A stretch of DNA of 64,000 nucleotides from Escherichia coli (GTDB lineage Bacteria; Pseudomonadota; Gammaproteobacteria; Enterobacterales; Enterobacteriaceae): NCBI RefSeq assembly GCF_016026235.1, contig NZ_CP065613.1. One strand, 5' to 3'. The notes below the pieces were generated by a model that was not told where the DNA came from, searched no databases, and saw only the letters and a program-made list of their open reading frames with translations. A program made the position numbers and the translations under genes. How positions within the stretch are numbered: position 1 is the stretch's first letter; each line of letters opens with the position of its first letter. Below, piece after piece: positions 11,690 to 59,402 of the stretch.

Positions 11690-11897
11690 GAGTTTTACTC
11701 CCTGTTTCAACAATCATCCTATTTTGCCATATCAGAAAAATAACATAGCGGTATAAATCAACAATTCCATATGAAATTGCTGCTACCACCAATACAACTT
11801 TAACTGCCTTAAATCAAAAATTGTCGCAGCAAGGTTAACTAAAATCCCAGTTCGTTAACATTTTTGCGTTTTGATAGCGCAACCTTCAGGAAAAATT

Positions 11898-15110: not shown

Positions 15111-16355
15111 TTACTGATACACCGGCAGTAAATTAAAGCTCGATAAAATATGGACCAGTGCGTTGCCAACGCCAAACACCAGAATCAGCGTAATCATCGG
15201 CTTGCCGCCCCAGACGCGGAATTTCGGGCTGCCAAAGCGTTTACGCGATGCGCGGGCTAACAGCGCCGGAACAATTGCCGCCCAGATGGTAGCTGCTAAA
15301 CCAGCATAACCAATGGCGTACAGGAATCCGTTCGGGAACAGTAGACCACCCACAACAGGCGGGGCAAAGGTCAGCAATGCCGTTTTCAAGCGCCCCAGGG
15401 CTGAGTCATCGAAACCAAACAGATCTGCCAGATAGTCAAACAAACCCAGCGTTACGCCAAGGAACGAACTCGCTACCGCAAAGTTTGAGAACACGACCAG
15501 CAGAAGGTCCAGGCTACGGCTGTTCAGCACGCCGCTTAATGCCTGTACCAGCACATCAATATTACCGCCCTTCTCTGCAATACCGATAAACTCCGGACGC
15601 GGGATGTTACCCATCGTCGCCAGCAACCAGATGGTATACAGCGCCAGTGCCATCAGCGTACCGTACACCAGGCATTTCACGATGGTTTTCGGATCTTTGC
15701 CGTAATACTTCATCAGGCTTGGCACGTTACCGTGATAACCAAACGACGCCAGGCAGAACGGCAATGTCATCAGCAGATACGGCGCATAAGATGCATTGCT
15801 TTCTGCAACGTTGAACAATGTCGCAGGCTGCACATGCCCCAACAGGCTGCCAAAGGTGAGGAAGAAGGTAATGACTTTCGCCCCCAGCACAATCGCCGTC
15901 ATGCGGCTGACGGCCTTAGTACTCAACCACACCACAAACGCTACCAGCAGTGCAAAACCAAAACCCGCCGCCCGTGCCGGGACGTTTAGCGACATCTCTG
16001 CGAAGGTGTGATGCAGAATTGAACCACTGGCAGAAATATAGGCATAGGTCAGGATATAGAGCACAAAGGCAATGGAAATACCGTTGACCACGTTCCAGCC
16101 TTTGCCCAGCAAATCTTTGGTGATGGTGTCAAAACTCGAACCGATTCGGTAATTCAGGTTAGCTTCCAGAATCATCAAGCCGGAATGCAGCATACAGAAC
16201 CAGGTAAAGATCAGCGCCGCCATTGACCAGAAAAACCACGCCCCGGACATGACCACTGGCAGAGAAAACATCCCTGCGCCAATAATGGTGCCGCCGATAA
16301 TCACCACGCCGCCAAGCAGCGACGGTGACGTTTGGGTGGTGGTTAGTGTTGCCAT
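15111..16355 (-). CDS. mtr: Tryptophan-specific permease (HAAAP family)
   Basis: 414 aa polytopic transporter in the position of K-12 mtr. Confidence 0.9.
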
Positions 16356-16406
16356 GAGGGCTTCTCTCCAGTGAAAAATAGTGCGACTGCGTTGTTATGC
16401 ATTGCA

Positions 16407-16427
16407 CTGTACCAGTACACGAGTACA
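16407..16427 (-). promoter_or_regulatory. Candidate TrpR operator in the mtr promoter
   Basis: The minus strand reads GTACTCGTGTACTGGTACAG, a degenerate GTACTAGTT-AACTAGTAC-like palindrome, 50-70 nt upstream of the mtr start. Confidence 0.35.
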
Positions 16428-16431
16428 AAAG

Positions 16432-16467
16432 ACAAAAAAAAAGCCCCGATGGTAAAAATCGGGGCTG
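16432..16467 (-). terminator. Rho-independent terminator downstream of deaD
   Basis: Hairpin agccccgat/atcggggct followed on the minus strand by a run of about 9 T. Confidence 0.6.
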
Positions 16468-16483
16468 TATATATTATTTTACA
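16466..16483. promoter_or_regulatory. Candidate TyrR box upstream of mtr
   Basis: TGTATA-N6-TTTACA fits the TGTAAA-N6-TTTACA consensus. Confidence 0.35.
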
Positions 16484-16508
16484 GATTGTGTTCGCTGTTC
16501 AGCGATGA

Positions 16509-18398
16509 TTACGCATCACCACCGAAACGACGACGACCGGTAGAGTCATCACGACGCGGAGCGCGGCCTTCACGACGTTCGCCGCTAAAACGACGACCAT
16601 CACCACGGCCACCTTCACGGCGTTCACCGCTGAAGTTACGACCGCCTTCACGACGTTCGCCACCGAAACCACGACCACCGCCACGACGCTCACCGCCAGT
16701 ATGCGGCTGTGCATCGCCCAGTAACTGCATGTTCATCGGCTTGTTGAGAATGCGAGTGCGCGTAAAGTGTTGCAGCACTTCACCCGGCATACCTTTCGGC
16801 AGTTCGATGGTGGAGTGAGAAGCAAACAGCTTGATGTTACCAATGTAACGGCTGCTGATGTCGCCTTCGTTAGCAATCGCACCAACGATATGACGAACTT
16901 CAACACCATCATCGCGGCCCACTTCAATGCGGTACAGCTGCATATCGCCAACATCACGACGTTCACGACGCGGACGATCTTCACGGTCACCACGCGGGCC
17001 ACGGTCGTTACGATCGCGCGGACCACGGTCATCACGGTCACGGAATTCACGTTTCGGACGCATCGGCGCATCTGGCGGTACGATCAGAGTACGTTCACCC
17101 TGTGCCATTTTCAGCAGTGCCGCAGCCAGAGTTTCGAGATCCAGCTCTTCACCTTCAGCAGTCGGCTGAATTTTGCTCAGCAGTGCGCGGTATTGATCCA
17201 GATCGCTGCTTTCCAGCTGCTGCTGTACTTTAGCGGCGAATTTTTCCAGACGGCGTTTGCCTAGCAGTTCTGCGTTCGGCAGTTCTACTTCCGGAATAGT
17301 CAGCTTCATAGTACGTTCAATGTTGCGCAGCAGACGACGCTCGCGGTTCTCAACGAACAGCAGCGCGCGGCCAGCACGACCCGCACGACCGGTACGACCG
17401 ATACGGTGAACGTAAGACTCAGAATCCATCGGGATATCGTAGTTAACTACCAGGCTGATACGCTCAACGTCCAGGCCACGGGCTGCAACGTCGGTCGCAA
17501 TCAGGATGTCCAGACGACCATCTTTCAGGCGTTCCAGTGTCTGTTCACGCAGCGCCTGGTTCATGTCACCGTTCAGCGCGGCGCTGTTGTAGCCGTTACG
17601 CTCAAGAGCTTCAGCCACTTCCAGAGTCGCGTTTTTGGTACGAACGAAGATAATCGCCGCATCAAAATCTTCCGCTTCCAGGAAACGTACCAGTGCTTCG
17701 TTTTTGCGCATACCCCAGACAGTCCAGTAGCTCTGGCTGATGTCAGGACGGGTAGTCACGCTGGACTGAATGCGCACTTCCTGCGGCTCTTTCATAAAGC
17801 GGCGGGTAATGCGACGAATCGCTTCCGGCATGGTTGCAGAGAACAGAGCGGTCTGATGACCTTCCGGGATCTGCGCCATAATGGTTTCAACGTCTTCGAT
17901 GAAGCCCATGCGCAGCATTTCGTCAGCTTCATCCAGAACCAGACCGCTCAGTTTAGAGAGGTCCAGAGTGCCACGTTTCAGGTGGTCCAGCAGACGGCCC
18001 GGAGTACCGACAACGATCTGCGGCCCCTGACGCAGGGCGCGTAATTGCACGTCATAACGCTGGCCGCCGTACAGAGCAACCACATTTACGCCGCGCATGT
18101 GTTTAGAGAAATCCGTCATTGCTTCAGCAACCTGTACCGCCAGTTCGCGGGTCGGTGCCAGCACCAGAATCTGTGGTGCTTTCAGCTCAGGATCAAGATT
18201 CTGCAACAGAGGTAAAGAGAATGCTGCAGTTTTTCCGCTCCCCGTCTGGGCCATACCCAGAACGTCGCGGCCATTCAGCAGATGTGGAATACACTCTGCC
18301 TGAATTGGAGATGGTTTTTCGTAACCCAGATCGTTAAGGGCTTCAAGGATAGGAGCCTTCAGGCCCAGATCTGCAAAAGTGGTTTCGAATTCAGCCAT
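16509..18398 (-). CDS. deaD: Cold-shock DEAD-box ATP-dependent RNA helicase
   Basis: 629 aa from ATG (cat at 18396-18398); AQTGSGKT and DEAD motifs; RGG/ERREGG-repeat C-terminal tail. Confidence 0.9.
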
Positions 18399-59352: not shown

Positions 59353-59402
59353 AGTTAATCGACCATACTGGAGATCGTCAGAAAATATTTCCAGGAGATG
59401 GC

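Follow-up and report, generated by a model that had tools for sequence, protein, structure and literature searches.

The region analysed lies in a 64,000-nt stretch of an Escherichia coli genome (hereafter the window), in which mtr occupies positions 15111–16355 on the minus strand and deaD is located likewise on the minus strand. A 901-bp query taken around the control region between the two genes matched 5,425 of 5,426 complete E. coli genomes with an identity of 99.9–100%, and the features at the matching loci are annotated as mtr, coding for tryptophan permease, and deaD. The gene names proposed in the first-pass annotation, which was made from the sequence alone, agree with those of all 5,425 genomes and of the reference strain MG1655. 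In MG1655 the genes are found on the complement strand at 3304573–3305817 (mtr) and 3305971–3307860 (deaD), the MG1655 coordinate being equal to the window coordinate plus 3,289,462. The intergenic gap is 153 nt long, and the control region shares 180 of 181 bases with MG1655, the sole difference being a substitution at 16435 (T here, C in K-12). The MG1655 RefSeq record contains no annotated regulatory features for the deaD–mtr control region. In the mtr sense, the elements follow one another in the order of the deaD stop codon, a probable weak TyrR box, the strong TyrR box, the terminator, a weak -35, the TrpR operator with an extended -10, and the mtr start codon (Table 1).

Table 1 Features of the deaD–mtr control region in window coordinates, listed in the mtr sense.
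Feature	Position	Strand	Basis and remarks
deaD stop codon TAA	16509–16511	-	ORF list, MG1655 annotation
Probable weak (distal) TyrR box CGTAATCATCGCTGAACA	16496–16513	-	Overlaps the deaD stop codon; probable assignment
Strong (proximal) TyrR box TGTAAAATAATATATACA	16466–16483	-	Consensus, weight matrix, geometry, conservation
deaD intrinsic terminator	16434–16466	-	Hairpin 16466–16442, T9 run 16442–16434
Putative weak -35 TTGTCT (CTGTCT in K-12)	16430–16435	-	18 bp upstream of TACAGT; placed by geometry
TrpR operator GTACTCGTGTACTGGTAC	16409–16426	-	Weight matrix, pattern search, conservation
TG-extended -10 TGgTACAGT	16406–16414	-	Within the right half of the TrpR operator; putative promoter assignment
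mtr start codon ATG	16353–16355	-	ORF list, MG1655 annotation; ATG at the same position in all orthologues

The strong TyrR box TGTAAAATAATATATACA reads TGTATA-TATTAT-TTTACA on the plus strand, where the first-pass annotation had pointed out a TyrR-like TGTATA-N6-TTTACA sequence, and TGTAAA-ATAATA-TATACA in the mtr sense. It matches 11 of the 12 positions of the consensus TGTAAA-N6-TTTACA, with both G2 and C17 present, and its far edge is situated 128 nt from the mtr ATG, which places both of the motifs proposed in that annotation within 130 nt upstream of the gene, as claimed. Weight matrices were constructed with mtr excluded, using the upstream regions of MG1655 aroF, tyrP, aroL, aroP, tyrB, aroG, tyrR, trpL, aroH and trpR, from which 11 TyrR boxes and four TrpR operators were recovered by consensus as training sites. 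The mtr box scored 20.6 bits, the best value among 127,966 window positions, with the next best at 12.1 bits (a margin of 8.5 bits). The 11 known TyrR boxes scored 4.5–21.6 bits when each was left out in turn, and the mtr box has its place among the higher-scoring ones (15.6–21.6 bits). The runner-up matches at 59376–59393, 11752–11769 and 2692–2709 reached 11.5–12.1 bits, which is well below the mtr strong box and similar to the weaker known boxes.

The TrpR-type palindrome is represented by GTACTCGTGTACTGGTAC, the only match of the TrpR pattern search in the window, with 0.04 expected. With the matrix derived from the operators of trp, aroH, trpR and aroL, it was given 18.9 bits, which is the best score in the window (the next one is 8.2, a margin of 10.7) and lies inside the 12.6–21.0-bit range covered by those four known operators. 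It carries a directly repeated GTACT (GTACTcgtGTACT). Compared to the ideal palindrome of about 18 bp with GNACT half-sites, GTACTAGTTAACTAGTAC, it has four mismatches, with the corresponding numbers being four for trpR, five for aroL and one for trp, so the palindrome itself was recognized correctly while its description as degenerate was an overstatement. The weight-matrix scan suggested together with the first-pass annotation, in which the motifs might have scored below true sites, put each of them at the top of the window and within the range of the known sites.

The suggestion that the two motifs are non-functional chance resemblances in an AT-rich spacer draws on the AT-rich composition of the TyrR box and on the consensus search at two mismatches, which found two sites in the window with 2.18 expected and is therefore uninformative at that stringency. 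At no more than one mismatch, however, one site was found against 0.17 expected, and the two sites are the top matrix matches of the window by 8–11 bits, are both located upstream of the one window gene known to be under both regulators, and are both conserved across genera amid diverging flanks. A coincidence of this kind is considered extremely improbable.

Downstream of the terminator hairpin, the only plausible core promoter is formed by TGgTACAGT and a poor -35, and mtr transcription would start at about 16400–16398. Both the spacer and the extended -10 of this putative promoter are covered by the operator, which thus overlaps core promoter elements. A poor -35 combined with an invariant extended -10 (see below) is the profile expected of an activator-dependent promoter. 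GTACTCGTGTACTGGTAC is a predicted TrpR operator covering the mtr promoter, with the binding being known from the literature: PMC5343134 refers to Czernik 1994 and Jeeves 1999 for TrpR binding at mtr, and in the same paper mtr is described as a gene under TrpR repression and TyrR activation.

The T at 16435 lengthens the T-run of the terminator from seven to nine relative to MG1655 and turns the -35, CTGTCT in K-12, into TTGTCT, which alone among the 78 Enterobacteriaceae sequences compared below reaches a 4/6 match. The exact 60-mer with this T occurs in five of 5,025 matching E. coli genomes, indicating a rare allele, which could lead to higher basal expression of mtr or to more efficient termination.

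According to PMC4374768, the TyrR boxes of mtr are situated upstream of the -35, the strong one being proximal and the weak one distal with eight base pairs between them. The centre of the strong box lies 42 bp upstream of the -35, and TyrR activates mtr by contacting the C-terminal domain of the α-subunit of RNA polymerase. This account is a paraphrase of earlier papers, those cited on the K-12 mtr region being Heatwole & Somerville 1991, Sarsero, Wookey & Pittard 1991 and Sarsero & Pittard 1991, and an mtr-lacZ fusion serves as a TyrR-activated reporter or control (PMC5554520). In the window, the centre of TGTAAAATAATATATACA (16474.5) is separated from the centre of the putative -35 (16432.5) by 42 bp, and because this is exactly the distance given in PMC4374768, TGTAAAATAATATATACA was identified with the published strong box. 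The comparison with published operator positions, also suggested by the first-pass annotation, is thus favourable with regard to both the 42-bp distance and the location of the box upstream of the -35. TGTAAAATAATATATACA is a predicted TyrR activator site of mtr, its binding by TyrR being taken from the literature.

The first-pass annotation placed the control region at 16407–16483. The elements are indeed present there, but the region extends further, to the probable weak TyrR box CGTAATCATCGCTGAACA. This sequence keeps the G-N14-C frame, matches eight of the 12 consensus positions and scores 5.1 bits, close to the weak box of tyrP (4.5 bits), with 117 window positions scoring higher. It is 12 bp away from the 18-bp core of the strong box, which corresponds to 8 bp between boxes of 22 bp and, read in that way, would fit the "eight base pairs" mentioned in PMC4374768. 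Among the candidates for the weak box it is the best and a probable one, and it is not conserved in the orthologues, even in E. whittamii (L004) and Escherichia sp. E1V33 (L005). Another sequence, CGCTGAACAGCGAACACA (16504–16487, 21 bp centre to centre), was considered because it is aligned with a consensus-like box in Phytobacter; it scored -10.8 bits versus 5.1 for CGTAATCATCGCTGAACA and was rejected for E. coli. Just 3′ of the deaD stop codon there is also a 5-bp hairpin, UCGCU-GAAC-AGCGA (16505–16492, minus strand), overlapping the probable weak box, and other genera possess short inverted repeats at the equivalent place, such as GCGTAAG-C-CTTACGC in Enterobacter.

The intrinsic terminator of deaD starts 43 nt after the TAA codon. 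The hairpin detected by the terminator scan, AGCCCCGAT-ttttacc-ATCGGGGCT, has a 9-bp stem with six G-C pairs and a 7-nt loop, and it dominates the RNA fold. A16466 is the final base of the strong TyrR box as well as the one with which the terminator stem begins, which bears out the observation in the first-pass annotation that the box directly adjoins the hairpin. The accompanying statement that the terminator and the activator site are nearly contiguous was right about the adjacency and understated its extent, since the terminator fills the spacer from the strong box to the -35. This puts the TyrR boxes inside the 3′ untranslated region of deaD. The 3′ end expected from this terminator is not listed in the supplements of Dar & Sorek 2018 or Adams 2021, and the full-text searches for the box and operator sequences gave a primer in an unrelated paper as the sole match.

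Several further observations concern RNA 3′ ends and terminator calls in the vicinity. A table in the supplement of Adams et al. 2021 (PMC7815308) includes an RNA 3′ end that is antisense to mtr, at MG1655 position 3305003 on the plus strand, corresponding to approximately 15541 in the window, and an internal RNA 3′ end in deaD at MG1655 position 3307737. The hairpin at 16442–16466 is also terminator-like on the plus strand, where it is followed by a weak T-rich tail (GTATATATTA); this call is probably irrelevant because no convergent gene ends there.

For the comparison across the Enterobacteriaceae, 80 orthologous mtr loci were fetched, one genome per species, and the 77 with enough upstream sequence were analysed together with the window, giving 78 sequences. 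The operator core GTACTnnnGTACTGGTACA is found in all 78 with its columns invariant, as is TG at -15/-14, and the -10 hexamer is TACAGT or TACAAT in 74, while the -35 matches just two to three of six consensus positions in 77. A strong TyrR box scoring above 12.9 bits is present in 74 of the 78 sequences and always abuts the hairpin. Both the box and the operator are conserved across genera, whereas the sequence of the flanking spacers diverges. The distance from the start of the box to the start of the operator is 56–58 bp in 73 of the 78 sequences (57 bp in 62 of them); that between the operator and the ATG ranges from 48 to 75 bp and that between the deaD stop and the box from 9 to 28 bp. 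As to the hairpin, 99.4% of the cells are paired across 75 distinct orthologous sequences, five of the nine pairs are changed on both sides, and none of 500 shuffles reached the observed value of the pairing or the covariation score.

Three Cedecea sequences (L059, L063, L068) and one from Shimwellia (L081) have no strong TyrR box, and the hairpin, the T-run and the TrpR operator are kept. In Cedecea, a second hairpin, CTGCCG...CGGCAG, takes the place of the TyrR box about 60–100 nt upstream of the TrpR operator. As these taxa keep the terminator and the operator without the box, the TyrR input can be regarded as a separable layer, and the distribution of the elements suggests a gain or loss of TyrR activation at mtr that did not depend on the control by TrpR.

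It might also be supposed that the hairpin and the T-run are not, or not only, the deaD terminator but a leader attenuator of an mtr transcript started farther upstream. Inside the two TyrR boxes there is indeed a sigma-70-like sequence, TGAACA-17-AATAAT (9/12), at 16501–16473 on the minus strand, and the stretch from 16432 to 16528 shows weak sub-threshold Rfam similarity to the Trp_leader and trpB motifs. The start predicted for this promoter-like site, however, would coincide with the hairpin's first base, so that no leader would remain for sensing, and its -35 TGAACA is specific to E. coli and not conserved, because of which the site is probably fortuitous. The Rfam search returned only sub-threshold terminator-shaped matches, and those to Trp_leader and trpB, with 20–24 bits versus gathering scores of 41–59, are far under the thresholds and explained by the generic shape of a terminator. 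Moreover, the invariant extended -10 inside the TrpR operator is located downstream of the hairpin, the TyrR boxes are upstream of the -35 according to PMC4374768, and the operon list of Dar & Sorek gives deaD-yrbN with mtr absent. An attenuator is thus regarded as highly improbable.

The identity of the locus, the motif scores, the match with the literature, the terminator, the phylogenetic footprint and the promoter type all favour the explanation that the locus is the native mtr regulatory region of E. coli, packed into the 153-nt gap 3′ of deaD, to which we assign a probability of about 0.93. The interpretation given in the first-pass annotation is supported as essentially right. The mtr control region is already known, being a long-studied textbook dual-control promoter, and the present locus corresponds to the promoter-operator region of K-12 mtr, with which the order of the elements, the promoter-proximal position of the strong box and the 42-bp distance from the box to the -35 agree as these are described in PMC4374768.

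Some features of this region are shared with other control regions of MG1655. The trpEDCBA operator is, like that of mtr, an 18-bp palindrome with GNACT half-sites; it has one mismatch to the ideal palindrome, whereas the mtr operator has four plus the direct repeat. The trpEDCBA operator overlaps the -10. The tyrP region contains a strong and a weak TyrR box with 20.1 and 4.5 bits, similar to the 20.6 and 5.1 bits at mtr; the centre-to-centre distance is 23 bp for the tyrP boxes and 30 bp for those of mtr, both of which are upstream of the -35. In aroL, as in mtr, TyrR boxes and a TrpR operator are combined in one short control region, with both motif types having been recovered in MG1655. 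Both proteins repress aroL (PMC5343134), in contrast to mtr, where TrpR is the sole repressor and TyrR acts as an activator from a position upstream of the -35.

The following order of events can be proposed, in which the motifs, scores, hairpin, conservation and spacing were computed here, and the binding, activation, repression and contact with the α-subunit come from the literature. RNA polymerase leaving deaD would terminate at the GC-rich hairpin and the U-tract. Directly downstream lies the putative sigma-70 promoter of mtr with its poor -35 and TG-extended -10, which would rely on the extended -10 and on TyrR. In the presence of tryptophan, TrpR would occupy the 18-bp operator and exclude RNA polymerase, resulting in repression. 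In the presence of phenylalanine or tyrosine, TyrR would bind the strong box, centred approximately 75 bp upstream of the putative start, and with phenylalanine it would additionally bind the weak distal box, acting as a class I activator of the weak promoter through the C-terminal domain of the α-subunit of RNA polymerase. The DNA of the terminator hairpin and T-run may serve as a spacer of fixed length (57 bp from the start of the box to the start of the operator) by which TyrR would be kept on the correct face of the helix.

Whether the terminator contributes anything to activation beyond its length is a separate matter. It is quite probable that the packing of the terminator and the activator site reflects genome compaction without mechanistic meaning, so that an arbitrary spacer of suitable length would suffice: selection for termination fully explains the hairpin, and the four Cedecea and Shimwellia taxa, by keeping the hairpin and the operator without the TyrR box, indicate that the parts are separable. 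Against this speaks the distance of 56–58 bp between the box and the operator in 73 of the 78 sequences while the neighbouring distances drift by 19–27 bp; this fixed length shows a constraint on spacing but is no evidence that activation depends on the hairpin sequence as such. The other reading, that the deaD terminator is dual-use, functioning as an RNA terminator for deaD and as a DNA part of the mtr activation module, appears unlikely. If it were true, the length of the terminator would set the helical phasing of TyrR, the T-tract, situated just upstream of the -35 and reaching into it, would offer a bent or UP-like surface to which the α-subunit C-terminal domain recruited by TyrR could dock, and the terminator and promoter would co-evolve as one unit across the Enterobacteriaceae.

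What the comparison adds to the known picture is that the TyrR box, the terminator, the T-run, the weak -35 and the operator with the extended -10 constitute a rigidly spaced conserved block in the set of 78 sequences. A textbook dual-control promoter together with the terminator of its neighbour could be recovered from the sequence alone, which matters little beyond annotation. The locus is a neat case of the regulatory DNA of one gene residing within the 3′ untranslated region of the preceding gene, an illustration of compactness rather than a discovery.
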